From: Gemmatimonadales bacterium | Lineage (GTDB): Bacteria > Gemmatimonadota > Gemmatimonadetes > Gemmatimonadales > GWC2-71-9 | DNA: 48,821 nucleotides | Direction: 5' to 3' | Assembly (NCBI GenBank): GCA_013820855.1 | Contig: JACDHV010000002.1 | Location: forward strand, 1 to 48,821 | Shown here: positions 8,668 to 28,290 of the stretch, one piece after another | How positions within the stretch are numbered: position 1 is the stretch's first letter | Layout of the letters: each line of letters starts with the position of its first letter | Translations under genes and position numbers: made by a program | Notes under the pieces: model-generated | Told to the model about the DNA's origin: nothing | Seen by the model: only the letters and a program-made list of their open reading frames with translations | The model's database searches: none

Positions 8668-8668
8668 G

Positions 8669-10085: not shown

Positions 10086-11881
10086 CCGCCCAGCCCGTAC
10101 TGTGACGAATGCACCTGCTCGAGCACCTTGCCGTTGCCGAGATACATGTGCACGCCGCACGGGAGGCAGGGATCGAAGCTGCGCACGGCGCGCATGATGT
10201 CGATGCCCTTGAAGTCGTCGGGGCCGTTCTCCTCGAAGATCGGCATGCCCTGCACCGCATCCTCGTACGGCCCGGGAGTCCCGAGACTGTCGCGGGGGCT
10301 GCCGTTCCAGGGAGTCGGCGGGTAGGGGTGATAGTTGGCGATCTTGCCGTCGCGGATCACCATGTGATGCGAGAGCACCCCCCGCACCGCCTCGTGGAAG
10401 CCGCAGCCGATGGCGTTCTCCGGCACCTTGAAATCGGTGAACGTCTTGGTCCTTCCGGCCCGCACCTCGTCCATGGCCTTCTCGAGGAAGAAGATGGCCT
10501 GCGCGGCGGCGTACGCGATGAAGTACGCGCGCGCCCGGTCCCGCTCGATGGTGTTGGACCACTGCGGGATCTTCCACTCGAGCGTGGCCGCGGGATGCTT
10601 GAGGCTCTTCGGCAGATTGATCTGCACGCTGTGCCCGGTGGCCTTCACGTAGCCGGTGTCGACGGTCCCGGCGAGCGCGGTGGCCCAGAAGCGCGCGAGC
10701 GGACCGCCGCCGGTGTCAAGCGCGAGGTGATCACCGCTCTGGGGATGGAACCAGCGCGGGCTCATGACCCAACTGTACTTGTCGTCGAAGTTCCGCTTCT
10801 GGGGGCGCGGAATCGTCGTCTGGTTCCACGGATGCCGCCGGTCCACCGGGTTCCCGAGCGGATCGGTGGACACGAACATCTCATCGTTCTCCCAGTCGTC
10901 GTAGAACGAGCTGCCGAGCAGGATGCGGATGCCGAGATTTATGTCCACCAGATCGGTGGTGATGAGCTTGCCGTCCACGACGATGCCCGGGGTGACGTAC
11001 ATCGCGTTGCCCCACTCGTTCATCGTGCGGTACTGGTAATCGCAGACGTCCGGGTTCTGGAACGCGCCCCAGCACCCGAGCAGGATGCGCCGCTGCCCCA
11101 CCCGCTCATATCCCGGCAACGCCTCGTACCAGAAATCGAAGATGTCGTCGTTCATCGCGACCGCTTCCTTGACGAAGTCGAGGATGGAGACGAGGCGCGA
11201 CAGGTAGTCGGTGAAGACCTGGGTGGTGGCGATGGTGCCGACGCCGCCGGGATAGACGGTGGACGGATGGACGTGGCGCCCTTCCATGAGGCAGAACATT
11301 TCGCGGGTGACGCGGCTGACCCTCAGCGCCTCCCGGTACACCGCCCCGGTGAAGGGGTTGAAGGCCCGCATGATGTCGCCGATGGTGCGGTATCCGTGGA
11401 TTTCGGAGTGCGGCGCGGGGGTGCGGTTCGCCTTGTCGAGGACGCCCGGATTGGTCTGCTTGACCATCTCCTCGCACCAGTCCACGAAGACCAGGTTGTC
11501 CTGGAAGATGGTGTGGTCGAACATGTACTCGGCGGCCTCGCCGAGGTTCACGATCCACTCCGCCAGGTTGGGCGGCTGGATGCCGTACGCCATCTGCTGG
11601 GCGTAGGTGGAGCAGACGGTGTGGTTATCGCCGCAGATGCCGCAGATCCGGCTGGTGATGAAGCCGGCGTCGCGGGGGTCCTTCCCCTTCATGAAGACGC
11701 TGTAGCCGCGGAAGATGGAGGAAGTGCTGTGGCACTCCGCGACCTCCCGGTTCTCAAAATCGATCTTGGTGTAGATGCCGAGATTCCCGACGATCCGGGT
11801 GATCGGATCCCAGTGCATCTCGACCAGCTTGCCGCGCCCCGCCGTGGAGGGGGCACCGGCGGCTACGTCTCGGGTGGCCAT
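10082..11881 (-). CDS. hhyL: [NiFe]-hydrogenase large subunit, group 1h (formerly group 5) type
   Basis: Internal ATG at 11881, preceded by a GAGGAG SD. The L1 motif is TSRICGICGDNH and the L2 motif is SFDPCLPCGVH, followed by a 21-aa C-terminal extension (MYLGNGKVLEQVHSSQYGLGG) of the kind removed by the maturation protease. 599 aa. Confidence 0.95.
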   Translation of the reverse strand: MATRDVAAGAPSTAGRGKLVEMHWDPITRIVGNLGIYTKIDFENREVAECHSTSSIFRGYSVFMKGKDPRDAGFITSRICGICGDNHTVCSTYAQQMAYGIQPPNLAEWIVNLGEAAEYMFDHTIFQDNLVFVDWCEEMVKQTNPGVLDKANRTPAPHSEIHGYRTIGDIMRAFNPFTGAVYREALRVSRVTREMFCLMEGRHVHPSTVYPGGVGTIATTQVFTDYLSRLVSILDFVKEAVAMNDDIFDFWYEALPGYERVGQRRILLGCWGAFQNPDVCDYQYRTMNEWGNAMYVTPGIVVDGKLITTDLVDINLGIRILLGSSFYDDWENDEMFVSTDPLGNPVDRRHPWNQTTIPRPQKRNFDDKYSWVMSPRWFHPQSGDHLALDTGGGPLARFWATALAGTVDTGYVKATGHSVQINLPKSLKHPAATLEWKIPQWSNTIERDRARAYFIAYAAAQAIFFLEKAMDEVRAGRTKTFTDFKVPENAIGCGFHEAVRGVLSHHMVIRDGKIANYHPYPPTPWNGSPRDSLGTPGPYEDAVQGMPIFEENGPDDFKGIDIMRAVRSFDPCLPCGVHMYLGNGKVLEQVHSSQYGLGG

Positions 11882-11895
11882 GGCGGGTCTCCTCG

Positions 11896-12954
11896 TCAGC
11901 GATTCAGGTGGCGCGGCGCGTAGCCGGTCGTGAGCGCCGGGCGGTTGTGGCGCCACTTCGGCTCCTTGTTCACCGTGTCGTTGGTGATGGCGCGGAGCCG
12001 GCGGAAGAGCTTGCCGTACGCGCCGATCATCGTGGAGGACACGGTGCCGCCGGGCGGCTGGTCCATGAACGGCATGAACTTGTCGGGGAAGCCGGGCATG
12101 GTGCAGCCGATGCAGATGCCGCCGACGTTGGGGCAGCCCCCGATTCCGTTCATCCATCCGCGCTTCGGCACGTTGCAGTTAACGACCGGACCCCAGCAGC
12201 CGATCTTCACCTGGCACTTGGGGCTGTTGTAGTCGTGCGCGAAATCGCCCTGCTCGTAGTAACCCGCGCGGTCGCAGCCTTCGTGCACCGTCTTGCCGAA
12301 GAGCCAGGTGGGACGGAGCTGGTCGTCGAGCGGAATGACCGGCGCCTTGCCCGCCGCCTGGAAGAGCAGCCAGGTGAGGGTCTCCATGAAGTTGTCGGGC
12401 TGGACCGGGCAGCCGGGGACGTTCACGATGGGGAGGCCGCCGGCGGAGCGGAAATCCCAGCCGAGGTAGTCGGCGAGACCCATGCAGCCGGTGGGATTGC
12501 CGGCCATGGCGTGAATCCCGCCGTAGGTGGCACAGGTGCCGGCGGCGACGACGCCCCAGGCGCCGGGCGCCAGCCGGTCGATCCACTCGTTGACCGTGAT
12601 CGGCTCGCCGGTGGCGGGGTCGTTCCCCATCGAGGTCCAGTAGCCCTCGCCGTTGATCTGCTCGTTGGGAATGGAGCCCTCGATGACGAGCACATACGCC
12701 GCACCGAGCTCGCCGCGCGCCGCCTTGAAGAACGGCTCGAGGAAGTCGCCCTGCCCTCCGCCCATACTCGGCGAGAGCACCTTGTTGTGCAGGTGCACCT
12801 TCGGGAGCCCGGGGATCAGGCCGAGTACCACGTCCTCTATGCTCGGCTGGGTGGCCGCCGTGATGGAAATGGTGTCGCCGTCACAGCTTAGCCCTTCCGA
12901 AATCCACAGGACGTGGACCTCGTCCACCCCGCCGCCGCTGGTCGTCTCATCCAT
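11896..12954 (-). CDS. hhyS: [NiFe]-hydrogenase small subunit, group 1h type, without a Tat signal
   Basis: 352 aa: MDETTSGGGVDEVHVLWISEGLSCDGDT...GTCATYGG...PGCPVQPDN...CWGPVVNCNVPKRGW...CPNVGGICIGC. There is no RRxFxK twin-arginine leader. A strong GAGGAGGA SD precedes the ATG. Confidence 0.95.
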   Translation of the reverse strand: MDETTSGGGVDEVHVLWISEGLSCDGDTISITAATQPSIEDVVLGLIPGLPKVHLHNKVLSPSMGGGQGDFLEPFFKAARGELGAAYVLVIEGSIPNEQINGEGYWTSMGNDPATGEPITVNEWIDRLAPGAWGVVAAGTCATYGGIHAMAGNPTGCMGLADYLGWDFRSAGGLPIVNVPGCPVQPDNFMETLTWLLFQAAGKAPVIPLDDQLRPTWLFGKTVHEGCDRAGYYEQGDFAHDYNSPKCQVKIGCWGPVVNCNVPKRGWMNGIGGCPNVGGICIGCTMPGFPDKFMPFMDQPPGGTVSSTMIGAYGKLFRRLRAITNDTVNKEPKWRHNRPALTTGYAPRHLNR

Positions 12955-13125
12955 CGGATGTCCTCCTCGCCGCTGCCGTCAGGCGCTTGTCGCGCGGAAT
13001 GCCAAACGGGTCCGGGCCGCTCCTGCCGGGATCAAGCTCGCCCGGAGGAGCGGCCCGACCGGGCCGCCACTGCTGCATCGTGACCTGCATCGAACGCCAC
13101 TCCCATCGCCGCCACCCCCTTCATT

Positions 13126-13143
13126 CCATACTACCCATACTAC
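13126..13143. repeat. Perfect tandem 9-bp direct repeat CCATACTAC x2 in the hhyS/hypA divergent region
   Basis: Read directly from the sequence. It lies in the only AT-richer patch of the intergenic region, just downstream of the putative minus-strand -10 element. Confidence 0.85.
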
Positions 13144-13156
13144 ACTAGGACCACCC

Positions 13157-13170
13157 TTGACATTCGTCAA
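13157..13170. promoter_or_regulatory. Perfect palindrome TTGAC-ATTC-GTCAA (FNR/FixK-type TTGA-N6-TCAA geometry) that also supplies -35-like hexamers for both divergent promoters
   Basis: On the plus strand, TTGACA (13157-13162) is followed by 18 nt and then TATGGG (13181-13186), just before the hypA GTG. On the minus strand, TTGACG (13170-13165) is followed by 17 nt and then TAGTGT (13147-13142). The assignment is by sequence resemblance only. Confidence 0.35.
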
Positions 13171-13192
13171 CACGCGGCCGTATGGGTCAGGG

Positions 13193-13558
13193 GTGCACGA
13201 GCTGTCGATCGCGATGAGTCTGGTGGAGGCGGCCTCCGAGGAGGCGCGCCGGCACGGCGACGTGCGGGTGGAGGCGCTGCACCTGCGGATCGGGGTGCTG
13301 GCCGGCGTGGTGCGGGAGGCGCTGGCGTTTTCGTTCGAGCTGGCCGCCGAGGGCACCCCCGTTGCCGGGGCGAGACTGATCATCGAGGAGGTTCCCGTGA
13401 CCGTGGCGTGCCCTACCTGCCAGGCCGAGCGGGCGCTCGCGTCGCCGCAGGAGTTCCGCTGTCCGGTCTGCGGGACGGCGACCGGGCACGTTGTGGCCGG
13501 CCGCGAGCTCGTTCTCACCGCCCTGGAACTGGAGGATCATGACTCCGCGAATCGTTGA
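13193..13558 (+). CDS. hypA: Hydrogenase nickel-insertion protein HypA
   Basis: GTG start giving (M)HELSIAMSLVEAA..., with the Zn site CPTCQ...CPVCG. 121 aa, taken from the frame of ORF 12653..13558. Confidence 0.9.
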   Translation: MHELSIAMSLVEAASEEARRHGDVRVEALHLRIGVLAGVVREALAFSFELAAEGTPVAGARLIIEEVPVTVACPTCQAERALASPQEFRCPVCGTATGHVVAGRELVLTALELEDHDSANR

Positions 13559-14195
13559 GGTCCGGCGCGACCTCCTCCGCAAGAACGACCTGCTCGCCCA
13601 TCAGCTCCGATCGCGCTTCGCCGCCGCCGGGGTCACGGTCGTGAACCTCGTGTCGGGCCCTGGCGCCGGCAAGACCGCGCTGCTCGAAGCGACCCTCGCC
13701 GCGCTGCACCCCGGTCGCCGGGTGGCGGCGCTCGTCGGCGACCTGGCGACCGATAACGACGCGCGGCGGCTGGGACGCAGCGGGGCGCCGGTGCGCCAGA
13801 TAACCACCGGCACGGTCTGCCACCTCGACGCTGAGATGGTCGCCGCCGCGCTCGACGACTGGGACCTCGGGGCGCTCGACCTGCTGTTCATCGAAAACGT
13901 GGGGAATCTGGTCTGCCCGGCGAGCTTCGACCTGGGGGAGAGTCTGCGGGTGGTGCTGTTCTCGGTGACGGAGGGCGAGGACAAGCCGCTCAAGTACCCG
14001 ACGATCTTCAACGGCGCCGACCTGGCGGTGCTGACGAAGCTCGATCTCGCCGAGGCGGTCGAATTCGACCGGGCCGCCGCCTACCGCAACGTGCAGGCGG
14101 TGCGGCCGGGGCTCGAGATCGTCGAGGTGTCGGCCAAGCGCGGCACCGGGCTCGACGGGTGGCTCGCGCGGTTCAGCGCCCGTATTTCCGCATGA
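13539..14195 (+). CDS. hypB: Hydrogenase nickel-incorporation GTPase HypB
   Basis: Internal ATG after a GGAGGA SD, overlapping the hypA 3' end by 20 nt. It carries the P-loop SGPGAGKT, the ENVGNLVCPASFDLGE block and LTKLDL. There is no His-rich N-terminus. Confidence 0.95.
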   Translation: MTPRIVEVRRDLLRKNDLLAHQLRSRFAAAGVTVVNLVSGPGAGKTALLEATLAALHPGRRVAALVGDLATDNDARRLGRSGAPVRQITTGTVCHLDAEMVAAALDDWDLGALDLLFIENVGNLVCPASFDLGESLRVVLFSVTEGEDKPLKYPTIFNGADLAVLTKLDLAEAVEFDRAAAYRNVQAVRPGLEIVEVSAKRGTGLDGWLARFSARISA

Positions 14196-14927
14196 TCCCC
14201 CGCAACCGGTCATGCGGCAGGGCGTAGGACCGGACATCGTCGGCGCCGGTCATCGTGGTCGCCGCAACGAGCGCGTTCGTGATCGCCTCCTCAGTCGCCT
14301 GAACGGTGGCGGCGAAGAGCGGATCGATACGGCTGTTCGGCACCATCGCGAGCGGTACCGGGGCCGCCGAGTCGCGGGCCGCGCCGCGATTGGCAGTCGA
14401 AAAGGCGACGAAGATGTCGCCCGATCCGTTGCCGGCGATGCTCCCCTCCCGTCCGAGGCCGAGCGCCGCCCGCTTGACGATGCGCTCGAGCTGGTGCGGG
14501 AGCAGGGGCGCGTCGGTCGCGACGACGATGATGATCGATCCGAGCTCCCGCGCCGGCATCTCATCCGCGGCTCCATTCACCGCACCGGTGCGGCTCCCGC
14601 ACGCCGGCAGCCCCTTCAGGAATGCCTGCGACGGCTCGGCGCCGGCGGCGCAGAGCGTCGGCGCGTCGAACTCCCGCCCCACCAGCACTCCGGCGATCCG
14701 CAGCTGGCGCCGTGACCGTAGTTGCATTGCACGAGCACCCCGACGGTATAGCCGCCCTTGAAGCCGTTGCAGATCATGCCGGTGCCGCCGCCCACGGCGC
14801 CTTCGGCGACCGGCCCGCCCGTAGCGCCGTCCAGTGCGGCCGCCGCGTGTTCCGGCTTCACATGAAAGCCATCAATGTCGTTGAGGCGGTCGTCGCCATC
14901 TACGAGTATCAGTCGACCATGTATCAT
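14173..14927 (-). pseudogene. C-terminal relic of a DmpA/S58 (P1-family) aminopeptidase paralogue
   Basis: ORFs 14616..14927 and 14173..14727 together align to the C-terminal ~60% of the intact paralogue at 37840..39060 ([53 protein letters not shown]...RKYGR). The relic lacks roughly 190 N-terminal residues. It has a 14-codon deletion that removes IGTASRRLSDRAGG, the expected autoprocessing site. It also has a 1-nt frameshift near 14714. Confidence 0.8.
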
Positions 14928-15177
14928 GTTTAGGTCGTGGTGGTGGACGAGGTCTGGACCTCGGTGGGCTCCACCAATTTCGACAACCGGTCGTTCCGGC
15001 TGAACGACGAGGCCAACCTCAACATCCTCGACGCCGGGCTCGCCGCCGGCCAGGCGACGGTGTTCGAGGCCGACAAGGCGAGAGCCCGCCGGATCACATT
15101 CGATGATTGGCGCCGAGCGCCCCCGCCGGGAGCGGGCCGTCGAGTGGCTCGCGGGCCTGCTGCGGCTCCAGCTTTAG
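14889..15177 (+). pseudogene. C-terminal relic of a phospholipase D / cardiolipin synthase family gene (second HKD motif onward)
   Basis: The plus frame reads ...[12 protein letters not shown][TAG][29 protein letters not shown]. This is an H-x-K-x4-D...GS.N.D.RS motif with a stop codon (14931-14933) exactly where the catalytic Lys codon belongs. A frameshift in the C-run near 15120 separates ...ITFDDWRR from the typical tail [16 protein letters not shown] (TAG at 15175-15177). Everything upstream of ~14889 is missing. Confidence 0.75.
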
Positions 15178-15185
15178 GAGAGTCC

Positions 15186-16505
15186 ATGAGTTTTCTGCGC
15201 CGGTGGTGGGCCGGGGTCTGGTCCAGCCTGTGGTTCATCCCGGGCCTGATCGTGGTGGGGTCCGCCGGTGCGGCCGTGCTGCTGGTCGAGATGACCCTGC
15301 CCTTCGGCGACGCAGCCCTCCGGTGGCCTCGGCTCCTGGGAGCGGGGGCGGAGGGATCCCGGGGCATGCTGACGGCGGTCGCCACCTCGATGATCACCGT
15401 CGCCGGCGTGGTGTTCTCCATCACGATCGTGGTCCTGTCGCTGGCCTCCAGTCAGTACACCTCGCGGGTCCTCCGGAGCTTCATGATCGACCGGGCCAAT
15501 CAGGCGGTCCTGGGCGTGTTCGTCGGCATCTTCGCCTACTGCCTGGTCGTCCTGCGCACCATTCGGAGTGGGGACGAAGGGGTGTTCGTCCCCTCGCTCG
15601 CGGTTCTCGGCGGAGTGGTGCTGGCCTTCGTGGGCATAGGCTTCCTGGTCTACTTCATCCACCACATCGCGACCGCCATCCAGGCCTCGTCGATCCTTGC
15701 CGCGGTGGCGGAGGACACGCTCCGGGCCGTGGACCGGATGTTTGCCGAACAGGTGGGTGGGGCGGCGAATGATGAGGCGGCCTCCGCCAGGGAACAGGAC
15801 GCGCGGGTGCGGCACCGGCTGCCGGTCCCGGCGGGCCGGTCGGGCTACATCCAACTGGTGGACGACAAGGTGCTGCTCGAGGTCGCCCATCGGGGCGACA
15901 CGGTGGTACGAATGGAACGGAGCGTCGGCGAGTTCGTGATCGAGGGGGCCGTGCTGGCGGTAATCGAGGTGGAGGAAGCCGGCACTGCGCGGGAGGACAT
16001 CGGACGTCTGGCGGGCGCCTTCACCATCGACCGACAGCGCAGCGTTGACCAGGACCCGGCCTACGGGATCCGTCAGATCGTGGATGTGGCGCTGAAGGCG
16101 CTCTCGCCCGGCATCAACGACAGCACGACCGCGGTCATGTGCGTGGACTATCTGACGGCCATCCTCAGCCGGGTAGCCTGCCGCCACATCCCTTCGCCCC
16201 TGCGTACTCGGGACGGCGTTCTTCGGGTCATCGCCCGGGGGCCGTCGTTCGGCACGTTGATGGACGAAGCCTTCGATCAGATCCGGCAGCACGGCGGCGG
16301 AAACGTGGCGGTGCTGGGACGGCTGATCTGGGCCTACCGGTCGCTTTCCGAGCTTTCGATCGGGCCCGCCCAGCGCCGCCTCCTGCTCGACCATGTCGCC
16401 GCGCTGCGGGAAGCGATCCAGCGCACGGTCCCGTCACCCACCGAGCGCCGGGAGCTCGAGGCCGATCTGGATGAGCTGACCCTCCGGTTGGTCGAACCGG
16501 CCTAA
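15186..16505 (+). CDS. Multi-pass membrane protein (recalled DUF2254 family)
   Basis: Internal ATG at codon 84 of ORF 14937..16505, after an AGGAG SD: MSFLRRWWAGVWSSLWFIPGLIVVG...SMITVAGVVFSITIVVLSLASSQYTSRVLRSF. 439 aa. Confidence 0.8.
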   Translation: MSFLRRWWAGVWSSLWFIPGLIVVGSAGAAVLLVEMTLPFGDAALRWPRLLGAGAEGSRGMLTAVATSMITVAGVVFSITIVVLSLASSQYTSRVLRSFMIDRANQAVLGVFVGIFAYCLVVLRTIRSGDEGVFVPSLAVLGGVVLAFVGIGFLVYFIHHIATAIQASSILAAVAEDTLRAVDRMFAEQVGGAANDEAASAREQDARVRHRLPVPAGRSGYIQLVDDKVLLEVAHRGDTVVRMERSVGEFVIEGAVLAVIEVEEAGTAREDIGRLAGAFTIDRQRSVDQDPAYGIRQIVDVALKALSPGINDSTTAVMCVDYLTAILSRVACRHIPSPLRTRDGVLRVIARGPSFGTLMDEAFDQIRQHGGGNVAVLGRLIWAYRSLSELSIGPAQRRLLLDHVAALREAIQRTVPSPTERRELEADLDELTLRLVEPA

Positions 16506-16554
16506 GTCCCGGAATCAGTAGGGCGGTCGCAACCCGTCGCCGCATCAGTTCCGC

Positions 16555-17636
16555 TCATCGAAGAGCTCGGGCGCACGCGTCGGCGCGGCCCAACAGCACC
16601 TCGCGCTCGCGGGCGTTGCGGGTGAGCGATGCCGCGCGCTCGAACTCGGCGCGGGCCTCGTCGAAGCGGCCGAGCTTGTCGAGCAGATCGCCCCGCACGG
16701 CCGGAAGGAGGTGGTAGGACTTGAGCATCGGCTCCGCGGTCAGCGCGTCCACCCGCTCGAGGCCCGCCGCCGGCCCGAAGGCCACCGAGACCGCGACCGC
16801 CCGGTTCAGCTCCACCACGGGGGAGGGCGCGATCCGGGCCAGCTGCTCGTACAGCGCCGCGATGCGTTCCCAGTCCGTGTCGTCCGGCGTGCGAGCCCGC
16901 GCATGGCACGCGGCGATCGCGGCTTGCAATGCGTAGGAGCCGGAGGCCCCACCCAGCTCCCCGGCCCGTCGAAGCTTGGCCAGACCACGCCGGATGAGGA
17001 GTTGATCCCAGCGGCCGCGGTTCTGCTCGAGCAGGAGAATGGGCTCCCCCTCCGGCCCGATGCGCGCCTTGGATCGCGACGCCTGGATCTCCATCAGCAC
17101 GACCAGCCCATGCACCTCGGGCTCCTCGGGAGCGAGGCCGGCCAGAATCCGTCCCAACCGGAGTGCGTCCTCGCACAACGCCGGCCGCATCCAGTCGTCG
17201 CCGGCGGTGGCCGCGTAGCCCTCGTTGAACACGAGATAGAGGACCTCGAGCACCGACGACAGCCGGGCGGCGAGCTCGGGGCCCCGGGGGACCTCGAACG
17301 GTACCTTCGCCTCGGCGAGGGTCCGTTTGGCCGGACGATCCGCTGCGCGATGGTGGCGGTGGAAACCAGGAAGGCCCGGGCGATCTCCTCGGTCGTGAGA
17401 CCACCGAGCAGGCGGAGCGTGAGCGCGACCCGCGCCTCGGTCGAGAGGACCGGATGACAGGCGGTGAACATCAGGCGCAGCAGGTCGTCGCCGACGTGAT
17501 CGTCGATCGCGGCGTCGAGATCCGGCACGGCCGCCTCCTGGCGGGCCTCGAGCTCGTGCCCGAGCTGCTGCCGCGCGCTCATCGAGACGGTGGGCCTCAG
17601 GCTTTCCACCGCCACCGGCAGAGAACCTGGCGTCAA
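16555..17636 (-). pseudogene. ECF sigma factor with a long C-terminal (ECF42-like) extension, 5'-truncated and frameshifted
   Basis: Frame of ORF 17094..17636: ...DDLLRLMFTACHPVLSTEARVALTLRLLGGLTTEEIARAFLVSTATIAQRIVR. Frame of ORF 16555..17715 continues (A)KRTLAEAKVPFEVPRGPELAARLSSVLEVLYLVFNEGY... to the C-terminus. A single missing base near 17331 (CGGCCAAAC where CGGGCCAAAC is expected) splits the frames. The whole sigma-2 region is absent upstream. Confidence 0.75.
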
Positions 17637-17680
17637 CCTGGACCGTACCCCGCCGCGGCCCCGGACGTCCAGGTGGATGA

Positions 17681-17902
17681 CAGTCCCCGCCAGCCGGGAG
17701 CACCGACCTGGCCATCTCCCGGCGTGACCTCGCGATCGCGCTGAGGCGGCTGGGACGCTACGAGGAAGCGGAGAAGCTGCTGCTGGAGAGCTATCCGGTC
17801 ATGCTCGACCGCTGGGGTGATGACGGCCCGGCCGTGGCCGCCACCCGACAGGCAGTGGCGGAGCTGGGCCGGCTCACGGGAAGGCCGCCAGCGCTGCCGT
17901 GA
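17681..17902 (+). pseudogene. C-terminal TPR-repeat tail of a lost gene
   Basis: Start-less open frame not present in the ORF track: ...DLAISRRDLAIALRRLGRYEEAEKLLLESYPVMLDRWGDDGPAVAATRQAVAELGRLTGRPPALP*. This is the typical final TPR of kinase- or regulator-type proteins. Confidence 0.45.
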
Positions 17903-17904
17903 CT

Positions 17905-18597
17905 CTAGACGCGGCCCGCCTTCGCCGGGTCGCCGGCATTGGCGCGGAACGCCTCCTGCCGCTCCGGCTTTGCCTCGGCCAGCGCGCGGCGCACCGCTTC
18001 CGCGTCGGCGTCGGCCCCGTACACCGGCGTGCCGGGCTGCTGCCGCCACGACTCGTCCAGGCTTCCCGCGTCCACCCCGTCGAACCCCAGCTCGTCGAGC
18101 AGGCGGATGACCACGTCCTTGGCCCGAGGGTCGTCGCCCGCCACCGGCAAGGCGATGCGGTCGGGCGATCCCTCCGGCTTCCCTCGCTCCAGCAGGTTCC
18201 GGGCGTAGATGCTGTTGAGCGCCTTGACGACCGGCCGGCGGAGCTGGTCGGCGACCCACCGGCTCTCGGTGGTACCGTTCTCGATCGGGTCGATCCTGCC
18301 GTCACGCTGCTGCGGGTAGTAGTTGCCGGTGTCCACCACGACCACCTCGTCGGGAACGCCGTCGAACAGGCCGGCCGGCAGGCGGGCAACGTTCTTCTCC
18401 GGTATGGTCACGATCACCACCTCCCCGGCACGCGCGGCTTGCTCCACGGGCACCGGCCTGGCTCCGGACTCTTTCGCCAGCGCGGCCAGCGACTCGGGCC
18501 CCCGCGAGTTGGCGATGGACACGTCATGGCCAAGCGCCGTCAGACGGCGCGCCAACGCGCCGCCGATGTTGCCCGCGCCGATGATGCCGATTCTCAT
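17905..18597 (-). CDS. NADP-binding oxidoreductase (NpdG/F420-reductase-like, Rossmann fold)
   Basis: 230 aa beginning MRIGIIGAGNIGGALARRLTALGHDVSIANSRGPESL. The length is normal for the family. Confidence 0.85.
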   Translation of the reverse strand: MRIGIIGAGNIGGALARRLTALGHDVSIANSRGPESLAALAKESGARPVPVEQAARAGEVVIVTIPEKNVARLPAGLFDGVPDEVVVVDTGNYYPQQRDGRIDPIENGTTESRWVADQLRRPVVKALNSIYARNLLERGKPEGSPDRIALPVAGDDPRAKDVVIRLLDELGFDGVDAGSLDESWRQQPGTPVYGADADAEAVRRALAEAKPERQEAFRANAGDPAKAGRV

Positions 18598-18606
18598 GCT
18601 CCCCTC

Positions 18607-19191
18607 CTATCGATCGATGAACGTCATCATCTTCTCGTTGTACCTCGGCCCCGCCACCACCTCTGGCGGCAGCGCCCGGTCGAGCTCCGCGATCTCCCCC
18701 GGGTCGAGAGCCAGTGACGCGCCGCCGGCGTTCTCCTCCAGGTACCGCCGCCGCTTGGTGCCCGGGATGGGCACGATATCATCGCCCTTGTGCAGCAGCC
18801 AGGCGAGTGCCACCTGCGCGGGTGTGGCGCCTCTCCGCCGTGCCAGCTCGGTGACGACGGACGCCGCCCGCATGTTGGCATCGAAGTTGGCGCCCTGGAA
18901 CCGGGGATCTCCCCCCAGGCCGATGCCAAGCTCGCGGAGGACCGGGATGATGTCGCTCTCCAGGTTCCGCTCCCACAGGGAATATTCGTGCCGACGAGCT
19001 GACCGCCCTCGATGTGGAAGCCGAACTTGGTGGCGAGGACGACCTGGTCGCGCTTGCCCTTCAGTGCCCGGCCAAGCAGCTCCTCGTTGGTGAAAAGGGC
19101 CGTAGGCCTCTGCAGTGTCGAGGAAGGTGACGCCGATCTCGATGGCGGAGACCTCCAGGCCCTGACCACCGAGCTTCCGGGTCGGGAGCAT
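18607..19191 (-). pseudogene. Aldo/keto reductase relic: still an open 194-codon frame, but with three internal deletions and a frame excursion
   Basis: From the ATG at 19191 the frame reads MLPTRKLGGQGLEVSAIEIG|VTFLDTAEAYGPF, then about 35 out-of-frame codons, then EYSLWERNLESDIIPVLRELGIGL|GGDPRFQGANF...VALAWLL...DIVPIPGTKRRRYLEENAG...RY. The ancestral TNEELLGRALKGKRDQVVLATKFGF segment sits in the frame of ORF 18627..19169. Typical family members are about 330 aa. Confidence 0.8.
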
Positions 19192-19721
19192 CACAGCCCC
19201 GCGTGCCTCCGCGCGACGTCCGCCAGCGCGGCCCAGTCGCGATCTCCTTCGCCCTGGGCGACGGCCTCGAGCAGGTGGTCGCGGAGAACGCTCGCGAACG
19301 GCATCGGCGTCCTCGCGCCCTCGGCCGCCTCCAGTAGCAGCCGCAGATCCTTCAGGCCGAGCACGAGCCCGAACGCGGCCGAGACGTAACCGACGCCATG
19401 GCGCCGGTGCTCCGCCGCCAGCTCCTCGGCGAGACGCACCGAGATCGTGGCCATGTTCACGTGGATGGTGCCGGGTGGGGCTTCTTCCAGCAGGTCCGGA
19501 GCGAGGAAGATCCCGCGCACGGCCTCGTCGTCGGCGAGCATCGAGAACACGGTGCCCGTGCAGGCCATGCGGGCCTCGCTCACCGGCTCGGCACCCTTGC
19601 GGGCGAGTTCCTCCACCGGCAGGCGACTTCGATTCCAGACGCGAAGCTGGTGCCCCGCCGCGAGCAGGTTGGCGGCCATCGCGCTGCCCATGGCGCCGAG
19701 TCCGATGAATCCCGCTTCCAT
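19191..19721 (-). CDS. 3-hydroxyisobutyrate/6-phosphogluconate-dehydrogenase-like NAD(P) oxidoreductase with a large in-frame internal deletion (probably non-functional)
   Basis: 176 aa. The N-terminal Rossmann part (MEAGFIGLGAMGSAMAANLLAAGHQLRVWNRS...HGVGYVSA) is joined directly to the C-terminal FGLVLGLKDLRLLLEAA...GEGDRDWAAL block. About 110 residues that normally lie between them are absent. Its stop shares one base with the start of the downstream AKR relic (TGATG). Confidence 0.65.
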   Translation of the reverse strand: MEAGFIGLGAMGSAMAANLLAAGHQLRVWNRSRLPVEELARKGAEPVSEARMACTGTVFSMLADDEAVRGIFLAPDLLEEAPPGTIHVNMATISVRLAEELAAEHRRHGVGYVSAAFGLVLGLKDLRLLLEAAEGARTPMPFASVLRDHLLEAVAQGEGDRDWAALADVARRHAGL

Positions 19722-19775
19722 TGCCGTAACCTAGGTACGTCGATGCCGTGGGAGAACCGCGAGGAGCGGCGCGGG

Positions 19776-19910
19776 TCAGAACTCGATTTTGCCCACCACG
19801 CCTCGCACCGGGCCCAGCTTCCGCGAGACCCACTTCCCGCTGAGATGGCCCAGCAGGCCGCCGGTGAGCACGTCGGAGGTCCAGTGCCGGTCGTCGTTGA
19901 CCCTGGCCAT
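19776..19910 (-). pseudogene. C-terminal relic of a PAP2-family phosphatase
   Basis: Hand translation gives MARVNDDRHWTSDVLTGGLLGHLSGKWVSRKLGPVRGVVGKIEF*. This carries the third PAP2 motif (R-x5-H-x3-D). The rest of the protein is missing and a stop codon lies 19 codons upstream. Confidence 0.5.
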
Positions 19911-20012
19911 GGCGGTCACCCTGGAGGTGAATTGCGCTACCCGGGGGGCTCGGCGATGGGTCCGCTATCTCCTCCGGTGCGAAAGCTCGACGCGAGAAGA
20001 GAGCGGTGAAAT

Positions 20013-20627
20013 CTACGGGTGGGTCGCGGAGGCGGTTTCCCGGACGCCCACGATCACCGGCAGACCCCTCCCCACGCAGAGGGCCACGGCGAGCCAGGCG
20101 ACGGTGCGGAGCGCGGGCAGCATGAGCGCGGCGGCCGCGGAGGCGAAGGTGTGCGCCGGGAATTCCGAGAGAGCGCGCGCGAGGGCGAGGCCGCAGAACG
20201 CCGTCACCTTGGTGACCGAGTAGCCGGTCCGCATCCAGGACGAGCCGACCAGGAAGCGGGCGACGGTGCCGCGGTGCTGGTCGAATGGGGCGACTCCCCT
20301 GGCCACCCCGATGGTTCGGAGCGCATCGGTCATGGTGGTCCGCGCCACCACGATGAGCGGTATCGCCGCCGGGATCATGCCGAGGTCGGCGAAGCACACC
20401 CACAGCACCAGCTCGTAGGTCCGGTCCGCCGCGATGTCGAGGACGCTGCCGAAGAGCGTCGTGCGTCCGGTCCTCCGGGCCACGAGGCCATCCACCGTGT
20501 CGAGCATGAGGCCCAGGAAGAGCAGGGCTGCGCCGGTGAGCTGGAGGGCAGGGGATCCCCGGTACAGGATCACGACGCAGATCAGCAGGATCGGGAACCG
20601 GGACATCGTGATCCGGTTGGCCGGCAC
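20013..20627 (-). CDS. CDP-alcohol phosphatidyltransferase family protein
   Basis: 204 aa with DTVDGLVARRTGRTTLFGSVLDIAADR, which matches D-x2-DG-x2-AR-x8-G-x3-D-x3-D. Multi-pass membrane profile. Confidence 0.85.
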   Translation of the reverse strand: MPANRITMSRFPILLICVVILYRGSPALQLTGAALLFLGLMLDTVDGLVARRTGRTTLFGSVLDIAADRTYELVLWVCFADLGMIPAAIPLIVVARTTMTDALRTIGVARGVAPFDQHRGTVARFLVGSSWMRTGYSVTKVTAFCGLALARALSEFPAHTFASAAAALMLPALRTVAWLAVALCVGRGLPVIVGVRETASATHP

Positions 20628-20750
20628 GGCTCGCCTCCAGGCGTTTTACCCAGGGTGGCGGGCCGGCGTCCTCTGCGCGTGACTTGTGCGGAGCGACCAC
20701 GTACCCGCCGCGCGTCGCGCGTGTCACGGGGAGACATTACGATTGGCGGC

Positions 20751-21710
20751 ATGAACGCCCTGGTCTTGAGCGGCGGGAACATCAAGGGCGCCTACCAGGC
20801 GGGCATCGTCTCCACCCTCCTCCAGGCCGGCTATGTCCCCCAGATCGCCACCGGAGTGTCGGTCGGCGCACTCAATGCCGGCTATCTGGCAGGCCTCGCG
20901 CCGTCAGGGACGGCGCCCGACTGGCCGGCCATCGGCCGGAGACTGGAGGCCTTCTGGCGCGAGCACGTCACCGGCGCCGAGAGCTTCGTCAGGAAGCGCG
21001 GCATTCCCGCCGTGCTGTGGAGCCTGATCCGCAAGCGCTGGCAGGGTCTGTTGGATACCGGACCGCTGGGGGATGTGGTGCGGAAAGAGCTGGCCACGGC
21101 CGACCCGCGGAGGACGTCGTTACGGCTCCGCGTGGGCGCGGTGAACATTCTGACGGGCGATCTGGTCTACAAGGACAGCAGCGAGCCGAGGCTGGTGGAC
21201 TACATCCTCGCGAGCGCCGCGGAGCCGGTGGCGATGCCGCTTCAGGTAATCGGCGATCAGCCGTACTACGACGGCGGCTTGCGCGACATCGCGCCCCTCA
21301 AGCAGGCGATCGACATGGGTGCCACCCGGGTCGTCTGCGCCCTGTGCCAGACGGCGGGCGTCGGCCCGGTCGAGCGCGGCTTCGATCGCGGCGACGCCTT
21401 TCATCTCGTGTCGCGGGTCGTGGCCATCACCAGCAACGAGATCGTGCGCAACGACATCGAGACGTTCCTGGAGATCAACCAGCAGCTCCTGATCGACCGG
21501 AGCCAGCCGATGCTCGCCGACAAGCGCTACATCCCGATTCTGGTGATCCGGCCAGCCCAGCCGATCCCATTCGACCTGGAGCATTTCACCTCGGCCGACA
21601 TCGCCCGAATGATCGACCAGGGACGGGCCGACACGGTTCGAGAAGTGCGGGCGGCGCAGGCCGATCCCGGTCATTCCGGCCACGAGATCGCCAGGGATCT
21701 CCGGGTCTGA
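20751..21710 (+). CDS. Patatin-like phospholipase
   Basis: Internal ATG of ORF 20019..21710: MNALVLSGGNIKGAYQAG (oxyanion hole), GVSVG (GxSxG nucleophile) and YDGGL (catalytic Asp). 319 aa. Confidence 0.9.
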   Translation: MNALVLSGGNIKGAYQAGIVSTLLQAGYVPQIATGVSVGALNAGYLAGLAPSGTAPDWPAIGRRLEAFWREHVTGAESFVRKRGIPAVLWSLIRKRWQGLLDTGPLGDVVRKELATADPRRTSLRLRVGAVNILTGDLVYKDSSEPRLVDYILASAAEPVAMPLQVIGDQPYYDGGLRDIAPLKQAIDMGATRVVCALCQTAGVGPVERGFDRGDAFHLVSRVVAITSNEIVRNDIETFLEINQQLLIDRSQPMLADKRYIPILVIRPAQPIPFDLEHFTSADIARMIDQGRADTVREVRAAQADPGHSGHEIARDLRV

Positions 21711-21819
21711 CCCCCTCGACCCTGCGGTCTGGACCGGCCGCCAGGCGATGCACCGGCGGCGCATTGCGCCCCCCGAGCGGTGCTCCTACAGTTCAAGTGA
21801 CCCGTCGCTGGAGCACAGC

Positions 21820-22011
21820 GTGAAAGGCCGCATCTCCAAGACATTGGAAACGATCCTGCTCGACCCCGGCGCGCGGCGGCAATTGCGCGAGCACCTCATC
21901 AAGGGCCGCGACGGCTGGGTCAGGATGAACGGCAAGACGTACCGGGTACAGATCGACGTCATGACCAGGGCGAAAGGCCCGCTGACCGGGGGACTCGCGG
22001 CAGCGGGATGA
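21820..22011 (+). CDS. 63-aa hypothetical protein (start uncertain; the ORF-track start is 21748)
   Basis: GTG at 21820 after a GGAG SD: (M)KGRISKTLETILLDPGARRQLREHLIKGRDGWVRMNGKTYRVQIDVMTRAKGPLTGGLAAAG. The stop overlaps the next ATG (ATGA). Confidence 0.5.
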   Translation: MKGRISKTLETILLDPGARRQLREHLIKGRDGWVRMNGKTYRVQIDVMTRAKGPLTGGLAAAG

Positions 22012-22832
22012 ACTTCGCCTTTCCGGCCCTCCTCGTTTTCCTGTTGCTCCTTCCAGGCATCGTTCTCCGTTACAGCTACGCCCGCGGCCCCTGGGGCTGG
22101 GCGAGTCCGACGTCGCTGCGGCGTGTCTCCGAGGAGCTGGCCTACGGGGTGGCTTTCGCCCTCGTGCTGCACGTGGTGTGGCTCGCGATCGTGGGGCGGC
22201 TGGGCTACCAGCCTGACGTGGACGCGATGTTCCTGCTGCTGGTGGGGAGCTTCGGGGACGGCGGCGATCACCTGGACCGCGTGCGCTCCTCGGTCGCGGC
22301 CCACTACGGCGGCGTCGCCGGGTATCTCGTGTCGCTCTACGCGGCGGCCGGCATCGCCGGGAATCTCGGGCACCGCGCCGTGCGGCGGCTCAAGCTCGAC
22401 CATCTCACCAAGACCTTCCGCTTCGACAACTACTGGTACTACATGCTTACCGGGGAGGTGCTCGACTTCCGGGAGAACGCCGGCGAGGGCAGGGCGGTGG
22501 ACGGCGTCTACTTCTCCGCGGTGGTGGACCACGCGTCGGGCAGCTATCTCTACCGCGGGATCGTGTCCGATTTCACCTTCGACCGCGACGGCGCGCTGGA
22601 CACGATCGTGCTGACCGACGCGCACCGACGGAGGCTGGTGGACGACCGCGAGGAAGAGGAGCCCACCGCGCACGTCGGCCCCGTGGAGCCGGACGAACGC
22701 TACTACGAGATCCGGGGCGATTTCCTCATCCTCCGCTACGCGGAGATCCGGACGCTCAACCTCGACTATTTCGCCGTCACGCTCATCGAGAGCATGCCCG
22801 CCGCCCTGGAGGGAAGCGTCGCCCAGAGCTGA
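22008..22832 (+). CDS. 274-aa membrane protein of unknown function (three N-terminal TM helices plus a soluble domain)
   Basis: MNFAFPALLVFLLLLPGIVLRYSY...FRFDNYWYYMLTGEVLDF.... It is translationally coupled to the preceding small ORF and followed by a terminator. Confidence 0.75.
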   Translation: MNFAFPALLVFLLLLPGIVLRYSYARGPWGWASPTSLRRVSEELAYGVAFALVLHVVWLAIVGRLGYQPDVDAMFLLLVGSFGDGGDHLDRVRSSVAAHYGGVAGYLVSLYAAAGIAGNLGHRAVRRLKLDHLTKTFRFDNYWYYMLTGEVLDFRENAGEGRAVDGVYFSAVVDHASGSYLYRGIVSDFTFDRDGALDTIVLTDAHRRRLVDDREEEEPTAHVGPVEPDERYYEIRGDFLILRYAEIRTLNLDYFAVTLIESMPAALEGSVAQS

Positions 22833-22877
22833 GCCGAATCGCCGCGGGTGACGACGTCGGAACCATGTGCTATGCTG

Positions 22878-22917
22878 AGAGGGGGCGGCGGTCAGCCGGC
22901 CCCCTCTTTACTCTTTC
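22878..22917 (+). terminator. Rho-independent-type terminator
   Basis: AGAGGGGGCGGC-GGTCA-GCCGGCCCCCTCT forms a 12-bp stem with one bulge. It is followed by TTTACTCTTT, 46 nt after the stop at 22832. Confidence 0.55.
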
Positions 22918-22930
22918 GGTGAGGTGCTGC

Positions 22931-22978
22931 ATGCAGGAGCTCATCAACCAGGTCGCCCAGCGCACCGGCACCAAGTAG
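22931..22978 (+). other. 15-codon mini-ORF MQELINQVAQRTGTK*: either a relic of an HU/IHF-family N-terminus or a leader peptide
   Basis: A GGTGAGGTG SD lies 5 nt upstream. ELINQVA..TG..K resembles the HU N-terminus (M.K.ELI..VA...g.sK) and is cut by a TAG. A GGTCAGG...CCTGACC hairpin (22980-23017) follows. Confidence 0.3.
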
Positions 22979-23143
22979 CGGTCAGGGGGTGTTTCGGTCC
23001 CGCCTGATGGCCTGACCTGGGAGCACACGGACCGGCCTACTGCGTCATGGATCACAGCGGGAGCGGTCCTTCCAGTGGAGCGGGGCCGGTTCGCCTGCCG
23101 GGACGATTAGCTTCTGGTATCGCCCCATCCCGAGAGTCTCCAG

Positions 23144-23878
23144 GTGACGGACCGCCACACCAATCCCGATCCTCCTCCAACCCGCCTCCCCCTGATCGGC
23201 GGGGCCCTGGCGCTGCTCGTGGCGGTCATGCCGGGAGCCGCCGGGGCGCAGCGCCAGGGCGGGGTGCCGCCGGAGGAGGTGGCGAGGGCCGTAGTGCTCG
23301 CGGACTCCACGGGGGATTGGGGCGCGCTGCTGCGGCTCGCCCATCCGGACGCCCTGATCCGGTTTCGCGGCCTCCAGACCTTCCAGCTGCGGATGCTGGG
23401 CACTCCGGAGCCGGTGATCGACACGCTGGCGGCCGATTCGATCGCCGCCGACTCCAGCCTCCAGGCCCGCTGGCATCGGGCTCGCACCCGCCAGGTGCGG
23501 TTCATGCTCGACTCCGTGTTCCAGGTTCCCGACCTGGACTCGCTGGCCCACACGTCCCCCGATACGGTGTTCGCCCGGTGGTTCCGGGGATCCCGGGCGA
23601 TACATGCCGGGGATTCGGGCGCGGTCGCCGCGAAGCGACCTCCCTCCTATCGGGTGATCGGCGCCGTCCGGGCGAGCGATACGCTGGCGTACGTCGTGGT
23701 GGAGCGGCCGGTGGTGCAGCCGCTCGGGCCGATGCCGCAGATGTTCCGCGACTTCCCCCACGAGACGCACCAGACCGAGGTCATGGTCATGCGGCGCTAC
23801 GGGCGGGAGTGGAGGAGCATGCTGGACGGCGTCGGCGAGCCCTACGGCTTCGGCGCCGAACTGGAGGCCGAGGAGTGA
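23144..23878 (+). CDS. Secreted hypothetical protein (signal peptide)
   Basis: 244 aa; GTG start. The N-terminus ...[24 protein letters not shown] looks like a Sec signal. Confidence 0.7.
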
Positions 23879-24207
23879 CCCTGGCCCTCTCCCTCGCGCT
23901 CGCCCTGGTTCTTTCCGTCGTCTCCACGCCACTCGCCCAGCAACGAGCCCGCGCCCGGGAGCTCGGGATCGCTCCGGGCCTGCTTCCGGCCGGTCCGCTC
24001 AACGCCATCACCGACGTCGCGGGTGTCGCCGTGGGGCAGACCACGGTGCGCGAGGGCGACTCGGTCAGGACCGGCGTCACCGCGATCGTCCCCCACGGGG
24101 GCGACGTCTTCCGGGAGCGGGTGCCGGCGGCCATCCACGTGGGCAACGGCTACGGAGAGCTGGTCGGCGTCAGCCAGGTGGCGGTGGCGGCCGCCCTCGG
24201 GGTCTGA
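23875..24207 (+). pseudogene. N-terminal relic (~110 codons) of a DmpA/S58 (P1-family) aminopeptidase
   Basis: GTG overlapping the upstream stop (GTGA): [58 protein letters not shown]...[13 protein letters not shown]...NGYGELVG. This aligns to the first ~105 mature residues of the intact paralogue at 37840..39060. The homology then ends and a stop codon follows. Confidence 0.7.
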
Positions 24208-27053: not shown

Positions 27054-27164
27054 CCTCTGCCCGGCGCCCGAAGGCTGGGCGCGCTGGTAGCGGCGGTCAC
27101 CGCCTGGCTCGCATCGTCCGCCCGGGCGCAGGAGCCTAGCGGGTTCCTGAACCGCACGGTCACG

Positions 27165-27845: not shown

Positions 27846-27852
27846 TCCCGGC

Positions 27853-28290
27853 GTGCTCGGGCCGCTGAGGGCGACGGCACTCCTGCTCGCGATCGCCGCT
27901 TGCGGAGCCGGCGCCGGGAACGACGCCGAGTCGGCCGAGTCTCGGCTGAGCCGTGCGAGGGTGGCGTTGGGGGGCGGCTTCGTCGGCGGGCCGGCGAGCG
28001 GACTCCGCGCGCGGCTCGACTCGGGCCTGATCGTCCAGCCGCCCGAGCCGGACTCGGCGCTGCGGGGCGTGGCAGCCGTCGCCTACCTCGAGCGGCTCGC
28101 CAGAGCGACCGACGTGAGCCACTCGGAGCTCCTGCCGGGCAGGATCTCCGAGGAAGGCGGGTTTCTCCTCGAGCACGGCACGTGGATCCTGGAGTCGGGA
28201 CGCCGGTACCACAGCCGCTACACGATACGCTGGCGGGACTCGCCGACCGGATGGAGAGTCGTGCTGTGGCGGTGGACGCGATTTCGTTAG
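27853..28290 (+). CDS. Hypothetical lipoprotein
   Basis: 145 aa; GTG start; lipobox LLLAIAAC. Confidence 0.65.
   Translation: MLGPLRATALLLAIAACGAGAGNDAESAESRLSRARVALGGGFVGGPASGLRARLDSGLIVQPPEPDSALRGVAAVAYLERLARATDVSHSELLPGRISEEGGFLLEHGTWILESGRRYHSRYTIRWRDSPTGWRVVLWRWTRFR

Follow-up and report, generated by a model that had tools for sequence, protein, structure and literature searches.

The window analysed here comprised positions 1 to 48,821 of contig JACDHV010000002.1 (forward strand, 48,821 nucleotides) from the assembly GCA_013820855.1 of a Gemmatimonadales bacterium. Between 14.2 and 24.3 kb it carries ten relic genes, interleaved with intact ones. The relics derive from two S58 peptidases, an HKD phospholipase/cardiolipin-synthase-like protein (PLD), an ECF sigma factor, a kinase-TPR protein, an aldo/keto reductase (AKR), a HIBADH-like dehydrogenase, a PAP2 phosphatase, a 69-aa protein and a Ser/Thr kinase. 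An earlier sequence-only reading had listed at least eight relics amid intact genes in this region, and each fragment it listed was recovered at or near the position given. Our results indicated that this region is probably (at roughly 0.8) a strain-specific patch of recent pseudogenes and not a functional system, with lineage-specific loss of selection followed by deletion-biased decay as the equally probable course of events.

Raw lists of open reading frames (ORFs) were crowded with spurious frames because the window has a G+C content of about 70%. The coding phase over 13-25.5 kb was set by a frame plot of G+C at third codon positions (GC3), and the phase-supported pieces were then scanned against Pfam. 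The plot displayed several phase switches inside ORFs, and same-frame neighbours that were split by one stop codon. The features of the region were as follows.

14173-14894 (-): relic of an S58 (P1-family) peptidase paralogue, 5'-truncated; Pfam profile positions 106-184 and 186-304 of 307, in two frames
14877-15178 (+): relic of the PLD gene; last ~99 of at least 477 codons
15186-16505 (+): DUF2254 membrane protein, intact, 439 aa; Pfam 2-366 of 368
16555-17570 (-): relic of the ECF sigma factor (r4, DUF6596 and TPR-like C-terminus); N-terminal 88 residues including region 2 gone
17571-17692 (no strand): DNA of the sigma/kinase-TPR head-to-head deletion junction, between the two relics
17693-17902 (+): C-terminal tail of the Ser/Thr-kinase-TPR gene, with a 52-aa ORF at 17744-17902; 773 aa in the more distant strain L096
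17905-18597 (-): F420_oxidored-type NADP oxidoreductase (F420 gene), ORF intact, 230 aa; Pfam 1-94 of 94
18610-19203 (-): AKR relic (328 aa in sister strains); Pfam profile pieces 28-74 and 218-289
19191-19721 (-): HIBADH-like dehydrogenase relic, 176 aa; NAD_binding_2 ends at 117 of 161, NAD_binding_11 starts at 66 of 122
19731-19918 (-): tail of the PAP2 phosphatase gene (245 aa in sister strains); the translation, in a frame with many stops, shows the PAP2 C3 motif
20013-20627 (-): CDP-alcohol phosphatidyltransferase (CDP-OH transferase), intact; 205 aa reduced to 204 aa by an in-frame codon loss at 20049
20751-22832 (+): patatin-like phospholipase (319 aa), orf87 and orf274, all intact and constrained by purifying selection
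22931-22986 (+): relic of the 69-aa DUF2267-like gene; 15 codons left after a 162-nt in-frame deletion (CGGC)
23144-23878 (+): orf244, ORF intact, of equal length in sister strains; first gene of the putative orf244-S58-kinase operon
23875-24207 (+): N-terminal piece of the in-situ S58 peptidase gene, ~103 codons (378 aa in sister strains); Pfam 1-60 at 24001-24183

Comparison of the ORFs with family profiles, a check that the sequence-only reading had proposed, separated the relics from their surroundings. The relics covered partial profiles, whereas about 20 domain-bearing ORFs in the flanks had full-length profile coverage, among them hyp genes, hydrogenase subunits, an esterase, SxtJ, LigD_N, two DinB proteins, PMT_2, an AraC regulator and a further S58 paralogue. 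The decay is therefore local.

The lesions were polarised against the sister strains L083/L089 and L085/L088 (in each pair one contig, longer in L089 and L088, respectively), L091 and L092, whose contigs were reached via the HIBADH ORF, the sigma fragment and a 67-aa flanking protein. DNA identity of these strains to the window was 97.5-99%, and L083 and L085 were 98-99% identical to it outside gaps. L083/L089, L085/L088 and L091 shared the window's gene order, which runs from the right end through MacB, Ser/Thr kinase (341 aa), S58 (378 aa), orf244, the 69-aa gene, orf274, orf87 (called as 63 aa in L083/L089 and L091) and patatin, and then on the other strand through the CDP-OH transferase, PAP2 (245 aa) and HIBADH (289 aa). 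L083 and L085 continue into AKR (328 aa) and then the F420 gene (230 aa). The contigs of L089 and L091 have complete S58 and kinase genes as well as PAP2 and the beginning of HIBADH; that of L088 is alike except that its kinase is split, and L092 covers only the MacB-kinase-S58 end. L090 is more distant (no blastn match to the window at 90% identity or above), and its S58 (382 aa) and kinase (340 aa) genes are parted by an extra FAD-binding gene. The ancestral layout of the left half was seen in L096, where the 773-aa kinase-TPR gene is divergent from a 437-aa ECF sigma gene, followed by DUF2254 and PLD. The sigma, kinase-TPR and PLD genes are intact in L096 and L086, and the PLD of L086 has at least 477 aa. 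Among GTDB species-representative genomes only AKR-F420 synteny (once with sigma) was found, at 83% identity or less, a distance too great for dating the lesions, and the F420 gene was at most 83% identical to Gemmatimonadales metagenome-assembled genomes. A literature search on the accessions gave no match.

These layouts point to an ancestor with the divergent kinase-TPR/sigma pair, PLD followed by DUF2254, the 69-aa gene and two apparent operons, (CDP-OH)-PAP2-HIBADH-AKR-F420 and orf244-S58-kinase. Genes that run in the same direction follow one another closely, at overlaps or gaps of 1-54 nt, so that operons are likely. Scanning the CDP-OH/PAP2 spacer for sigma-70 promoter and terminator consensus sequences found none.

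In the left half, the S58 paralogue had lost a conserved GGIGTSSR motif through a 42-nt in-frame deletion near 14757, and a frameshift was located near 14713-14715. Consistently, tblastn with P0245 and other homologues placed residues 68-141 and 142-314 in different frames with a 14-aa gap. The best database homologues of this gene were only 72-78% identical and did not lie at the orthologous position; the gene context of the closest one, in L095, was uninformative. Another S58 paralogue in the window (37642-39060, +) is intact (Pfam 1-305 of 307) and shares 57-60% identity with the closest homologues of the dead gene, for which it could provide functional redundancy. At ~14877-14894 the 5'-truncated, divergent S58 paralogue is fused to the 5'-truncated PLD gene. 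Residues 379-477 of the L086 PLD were mapped in the window by tblastn, and the PLDc_2 profile matched from 86 to 130 of 132 at 14937-15071(+). Alignment to L085 and L086 revealed that the lysine codon of the HKD motif was changed from AAG to TAG at 14931-14933. A +1 insertion at 15116 shifts the PLD tail into the frame of DUF2254, which gives the appearance of an in-frame PLD-DUF2254 fusion protein. This candidate was rejected, as the insertion lies before the PLD stop and the true start of DUF2254 is the ATG at 15186 with its own ribosome-binding site. The DUF2254 gene belongs to a 2.57-kb block shared with L085 at ~99.1% nucleotide identity; the 1-nt gaps in this block (15116, 17331) fall outside it, and homologues have 439 aa in L085 and 440-441 aa in L086 and L096.

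The sigma relic was split by a 1-nt deletion (GGG to GG at 17331/17332, a gap seen against L085). The Sigma70_r4_2 match lies in a different frame from the DUF6596/TPR match, no region 2 was found in the relic by Pfam, and tblastn of the 437-aa L096 protein mapped residues 89-168 and 169-424 in two frames; full-length homologues have 425-437 aa. The kinase-TPR tail matched TPR_12 with E=1e-5 and 26 bits, under the Pfam cut-off. L083 retains at least 99 aa of the kinase-TPR gene, and its homology with the window begins at GSTDLAISRRDL. A head-to-head deletion of ~2.9 kb, sized from the L096 layout, took ~720 kinase-TPR codons, the promoter region and the first 88 sigma codons including region 2. 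This deletion is common to L085 and is not found in L083. About 79 nt of the junction DNA (~17575-17653) are absent from L085 and had no match in the other sequences that were fetched. Specific to the window in the left half were the GGG to GG change, the +1 insertion and the TAG codon. The older lesions of the region include both head-to-head junctions, at which each of the divergent genes has lost its 5' end, as well as the 42-nt deletion, three 1-nt frameshifts and the nonsense codon.

L085 bears lesions of its own in the same genes: its kinase is split (227 + 93 aa), its PLD breaks off at another point and its sigma relic is without the 79 nt, indicating that the same dispensable genes were hit repeatedly in the species. 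The kinase and PLD lesions fall in regions 1-1035 and 12528-14036 of its contig. The kinase split apparently arose from a ~65-nt deletion, and the PLD tail of L085 is fused to the N-terminal fragment of an isochorismatase-like gene, with other fragments after it.

In the right half, three deletions were mapped in AKR, of 81 nt (18912-18914), 241 nt (18988) and 81 nt (19132-19146). HIBADH had lost exactly residues 115-227, including the conserved VKLAGN lysine segment, through a 339-nt in-frame deletion with CGGC microhomology (junction 19378-19381). Among its best ~120 homologues lengths ranged from 276 to 308 aa, nearly all 289-305, and one that was 95% identical had 289 aa. A 673-nt deletion (junction 19918, 1 nt) removed the CDP-OH/PAP2 spacer together with the first ~194 PAP2 codons, and a 12-nt deletion lies in the PAP2 tail at 19802. 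The one-codon loss in the CDP-OH transferase is tolerated. Downstream of the 69-aa gene a separate 59-nt deletion (~22986, 1-2 nt microhomology) took a hairpin. A '16-nt filler' at this junction was discarded, since finer alignment resolved it into the 162-nt and 59-nt deletions with authentic 3' gene sequence between them. The sequence-only reading had suggested a possible HU relic at 22931-22978. It is the relic of the 69-aa gene, whose intact orthologue matches Bac_DNA_binding (PF00216) only at E=0.019 and over residues 2-34; the best Pfam match, DUF2267, is itself below threshold.

An 1826-nt deletion (24182-24184, 3 nt) joined codon ~104 of the in-situ S58 gene to the last 26 nt of the Ser/Thr kinase gene. 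The kinase (341 aa) was thus nearly wholly deleted, and it was recognised only via the sister strains. The peptidase C-half and N-half of the sequence-only reading are both S58 relics, but they originated from two different genes. An inversion of ~14.9-24.2 kb through one S58 gene, an idea that came from the orientations of the N-piece (+) and the C-half (-), was rejected: the sister strains have the N-piece at its ancestral site beside orf244, truncated here by the 1826-nt deletion; the C-half belongs to the other paralogue (46-47% protein identity in tblastn, two short blastn matches of 80-85%); and no inverted repeats occur at the junctions. The S58 and kinase genes of this species are adjacent and translationally coupled, with 4-nt overlaps. 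In L095, from a related lineage (ENA ERZ25039541 contig_38447, 12027-12840), S58 and Ser/Thr kinase domains are fused in a 987-aa protein, which suggests a functional link between the two that would have been lost jointly here.

Compared with both sister lineages, the window lineage had deletions of 1826, 673, 339, 241, 162, 81, 81 and 59 nt within 5.7 kb, plus one of 12 nt. Two intergenic 1-nt indels (22837, 26821) and the codon loss at 20049 were also placed on this lineage. Internal deletion as the dominant lesion, as the sequence-only reading had put it, was thus borne out, with deletions of 12-1826 nt prevailing over four 1-nt indels and one nonsense codon. The right flank had no deletion across 11 genes and only three indels of 1-9 nt; its gene lengths were the same in the window, L089, L091 and L092 and differed by 0-4 aa in L088. 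The junction microhomologies measured 3, 1, 4, 2-3, 1, 3, 4 and 1-2 nt, and long direct repeats were not found at the junctions. Microhomology of 0-4 nt and lack of long repeats are what is expected of end-joining scars, and the deletions could have come about by illegitimate recombination, by (alternative) end joining or by slippage. Of Ku and LigD, only a gene with a LigD_N domain (LigD phosphoesterase) was seen in the window, at 28679-29686.

Six of the seven purely intragenic deletions were multiples of three (162, 339, 81, 81, 42 and 12 nt, the exception being 241 nt). The binomial p of ~0.007 for this count is post hoc: a first tally of deletion lengths gave 3/7, no better than chance, and 6/7 was reached once the purely intragenic events were set apart and the small ones included. 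The claim that the deletions leave reading frames open was confirmed: the relics keep long ORFs, and are annotated as short proteins, because stops are few at 70% G+C and the deletions mostly preserve the frame.

The same locus is also present in NCBI GCA_020064125.1 and in the Logan assembly of SRR11719875. Across 20.7 kb the window differed from these two assemblies at three positions only.

19093: extra T in the window (TTTT against TTT)
16052: C in the window, A in the others
13053: missing G in the window (GGG against GGGG)

Two of the three (19093 and 13053) are homopolymer-length changes, and all three may be assembly or sequencing errors or micro-heterogeneity. Since the other two assemblies are without the extra T, the AKR frameshift at 19093 is confined to this assembly. 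The three assemblies, which came from different pipelines, were identical in every large deletion, in the indels at 17331 and 15116 and in the TAG codon. Junction microhomology of just 1-4 nt without long repeats rules out a de Bruijn-graph artefact. Thus, the large deletions are not assembly artefacts, and the 1-nt indels that the sequence-only reading had proposed held for 15116, 17331 and ~14713-14715 but not for 19093.

Substitutions were polarised three ways onto the window branch using L083/L089 and L085/L088. The changes at codon positions 1/2/3, the ratio of nonsynonymous to synonymous rates (dN/dS) and the changes per site were as follows.

Relics: 537 codons; 6/7/7; dN/dS 0.68; 1.24%
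orf244 and F420 gene (intact operon partners): 474 codons; 5/4/5; dN/dS 0.91; 0.98%
orf274, orf87, patatin and CDP-OH transferase: 884 codons; 1/2/8; dN/dS 0.13; 0.41%
Right flank, 11 genes: 2257 codons; 8/9/20; dN/dS 0.27; 0.55%

The dN/dS of the relics (0.68) thus stood well above that of the other genes on the same branch (0.13-0.27), a comparison that the sequence-only reading had also proposed. The relics changed at a rate (1.24% per site) close to the synonymous divergence on the window branch (1.1-1.6%), and the nonsynonymous rate was higher in the decaying units than in the other genes (odds ratio 3.8, p=3e-5). The same genes had 11 synonymous and 5 nonsynonymous changes on the L085 branch (dN/dS ~0.17), indicating that the decayed genes were functional in the L085 lineage. 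The F420 gene is the last in the decaying PAP2-HIBADH-AKR operon, with 2 synonymous and 4 nonsynonymous changes on the window branch, and orf244 had 2 and 6, respectively; both may be under relaxed selection. These data support a relaxation of selection that would be specific to the lineage and act on whole transcription units.

Taken as pseudogenes, the relics are homologous to genes that are full-length in relatives, mostly at the orthologous position. Their disabling lesions were mapped at base resolution and include truncation, frameshift, nonsense and loss of catalytic or essential segments. Selection on them appears relaxed, with dN/dS of 0.68 and changes spread evenly over the codon positions, albeit on small counts. 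The sister orthologues, the clean microhomology junctions, the flat codon spectrum and the dN/dS of 0.68 support the mutational decay with a deletion bias that the sequence-only reading had offered as one explanation. In the window lineage, selection would have been lost on several units, which would then have decayed at a near-neutral rate, mostly via deletions of 12-1826 nt joined at 1-4 nt microhomologies, with a few 1-nt indels and one nonsense change. The losses of 5' ends and upstream DNA (kinase-TPR/sigma, S58 paralogue/PLD, and the spacer plus PAP2) probably silenced gene pairs or a downstream operon. Operon silencing, which we infer from these losses, would account for the dN/dS near 1 of the intact partners, the F420 gene and orf244. 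The order of events may have been inactivation at the operon level, then the deletions at tiny microhomologies, and then further independent hits in the sister strains.

Several points weigh against this decay account. It gives no cause for the relaxed selection. Substitutions were few (20 for the relics, 14 for their operon partners), and the contrast of the relics alone with other genes was marginal (nonsynonymous/synonymous p=0.067). The S58-paralogue/PLD junction had no sister-strain comparator. The three assemblies may stem from the same or related samples, so that the lesions are independent of the assembler but perhaps not of the biology. Finally, eight of the nine right-half deletions on the window branch were of 59 nt or more, whereas published spectra are mostly of 15 nt or less (PMC6054270). 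This skew towards large deletions could reflect lineage-specific repair biology, detection bias in the published sets, or a burst.

Among the alternatives, the one that survived best was that the adjacent hydrogenase/hyp cluster, on being acquired or rearranged, broke the locus at the S58 paralogue/PLD junction and made its neighbours dispensable. The sequence-only reading had offered a similar idea, which we regard as unlikely. The [NiFe]-hydrogenase cluster (267-14195) is complete and looks intact. It includes a large subunit (599 aa), a small subunit (352 aa), NifU-like, DUF5947 and HycI-like proteins, two HypC/HupF genes and HypD, E, F, A and B. Synteny with L085 stops at 15002 inside the PLD tail, where L085 goes on with unrelated DNA. 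The best JGI-metagenome relative of HypB was 79% identical, whereas genes of the decayed region had relatives of 96-99% identity there; an exact look-up of HypB found only this strain, and its JGI scan gave no sister strain. Moreover, an S58 gene lay downstream in 0/80 other hypAB loci, and the G+C content was slightly lower (0.65-0.67) at 10-13 kb. These features suggest that the hydrogenase cluster is strain-specific accessory DNA abutting the relic region. However, most lesions lie 4-10 kb off the junction and in separate transcription units, and the sigma/TPR deletion is also found in L085, which is without the hydrogenase cluster at that position. The empty site was seen in no sister genome. 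No integrase, transposase or insertion sequence (IS) and no tRNA was found among the scanned ORFs and in the tRNA search of the window, and no repeats were found at the junction, so that the integrase or transposase, the tRNA target and the flanking repeats expected of a genomic island or mobile-element insertion were lacking.

A single localised burst, in which the deletions arose together or within a short episode, via error-prone end joining of clustered double-strand breaks or via recombination with fragmented incoming DNA, and did not build up gradually under neutrality, was judged to be less probable still. The density of the lesions speaks for it (eight deletions of at least 59 nt in 5.7 kb against none in the next 5 kb), as do the junctions of 1-4 nt, the skew towards mid-size deletions relative to published pseudogene spectra (PMC6054270) and the LigD phosphoesterase-domain gene in the window. 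However, the lesions differ in age, the sigma/TPR deletion being common to L085 and the others not, and L085 bears independent lesions in the same genes; on these grounds the burst was given a low probability. Furthermore, the substitution level of the relics equals the synonymous divergence of the whole branch, as prolonged neutrality predicts, and the presence of intact genes under purifying selection between the relics is more simply explained by selection filtering. One form of this idea, a 'deletion shower' in which a short error-prone end-joining episode would leave about ten mid-size deletions with a frame-preserving bias, is similarly doubtful. Possible triggers would be desiccation or radiation breaks in soil, or recombination with fragmented DNA. 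If true, this would add a mode of mutation that has so far not been described in free-living bacteria.

It is very improbable that the shortened in-frame ORFs (the 176-aa HIBADH, the 15-aa peptide and the S58 fragments) are new proteins under selection. The frame is kept by six of the seven intragenic deletions and gene callers predict the shortened ORFs as proteins, but the HIBADH deletion takes the VKLAGN lysine segment, the AKR, sigma and S58 paralogue genes are also frameshifted, the dN/dS is ~0.7 with a flat codon-position spectrum, and the excess of multiples of three is a known mutational property of pseudogene deletions (PMC6054270). Metagenome assembly or sequencing error as the source of the deletions and frameshifts is barely credible: the extra T at 19093 and the G at 13053 do vary between assemblies, which may share reads, but the other lesions agree across pipelines, a homology of 1-4 nt, far below any assembler k-mer, is too short to mislead a de Bruijn assembler, and the relics carry extra substitutions as well.

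Mycobacterium leprae is a recently host-restricted bacterium with a pseudogene-rich genome, and the decay of bacterial pseudogenes under a deletional bias was reportedly treated by Mira, Ochman and Moran in 2001. The decay favoured here resembles the deletional bias and pseudogene decay described for bacteria (Kuo and Ochman, 2009, PMC2817411; Kuo and Ochman, 2010, PMC2916853) in that genes freed from selection erode mainly through deletions, which are more numerous and larger than insertions, the relics are recent and confined to one lineage, and their substitutions look neutral. Unlike in those cases, the organism is a free-living, large-genome, high-GC soil member of the Gemmatimonadales and not host-restricted, the lesions are packed in 10 kb with clean flanks, and deletions of 59-1826 nt outweigh indels of 1-10 nt. 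In Candidatus Burkholderia leaf symbionts and in other taxa, pseudogene deletions were found to be flanked by microhomology and biased to multiples of three, and this bias was put down at least partly to the periodic spacing of microhomology in coding DNA (PMC6054270). The window shares with them the short flanking microhomology, like that of alternative end joining, and an excess of multiples of three that keeps frames open. However, the published bias was demonstrated for small deletions, mostly of 15 nt or less, whereas the in-frame deletions here were of 12, 42, 81, 81, 162 and 339 nt, in a post hoc set of seven events. As in the pseudogene-rich genome of the recently host-restricted Sodalis glossinidius (PMC7067036) and in M. 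leprae, many recognisable relics stand among intact genes and are mis-annotated as coding. In those organisms decay is genome-wide, whereas here ~20 flanking genes were tested and found intact, and the genes stay under purifying selection in the sister strains. As a process this is well known, and the locus is an early, well-resolved case of it in a free-living high-GC soil Gemmatimonadales.

The prediction that the relics would be annotated as normal proteins was borne out by the gene callers of two public assemblies, which list relic ORFs of 169, 521, 232, 88, 176, 44 and 110 aa. Public records thus already list seven relic ORFs as ordinary proteins, among them a spurious 521-aa PLD-DUF2254 'fusion' (the PLD tail joined to DUF2254) and a 176-aa 'dehydrogenase'. 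Such an error is easy in high-GC genomes because stops are rare and many deletions are in frame, and it inflates protein-family diversity in metagenome catalogues. The locus offers a polarised, base-resolution snapshot of gene disposal within ~1% neutral divergence in a free-living soil bacterium; its main value lies in the caution it gives for high-GC metagenome annotation and in a clean case study of a deletion spectrum.

Like strain-variable regions beside genomic islands, the locus lies in a conserved block (~15.0-31.9 kb) that is bounded on both sides by variable DNA, since synteny breaks at both ends, with the hydrogenase cluster on one side. It differs from such regions in that no integrase, IS, tRNA or flanking repeats were found in the window and that the relics are orthologues of core-like genes of the sister strains and not cargo of an island. 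The second strain-variable junction lies at ~31840-31900 after the DUF4230 gene; the sister strains are collinear with the window to ~31.84 kb and then diverge. Beyond it come a 198-aa ORF, an aminotransferase and PMT_2 in the window, an RND efflux system in L088, and a CarboxypepD_reg protein with a beta-lactamase-family protein in L089, L091 and L092. Within the block, L090 (10510-12878, against 27054-28900 of the window) carries a 606-aa carbamoyltransferase upstream of SxtJ-DUF5989, in the place where the window and the other strains have an esterase and a 145-aa ORF, a small strain-level gene replacement.

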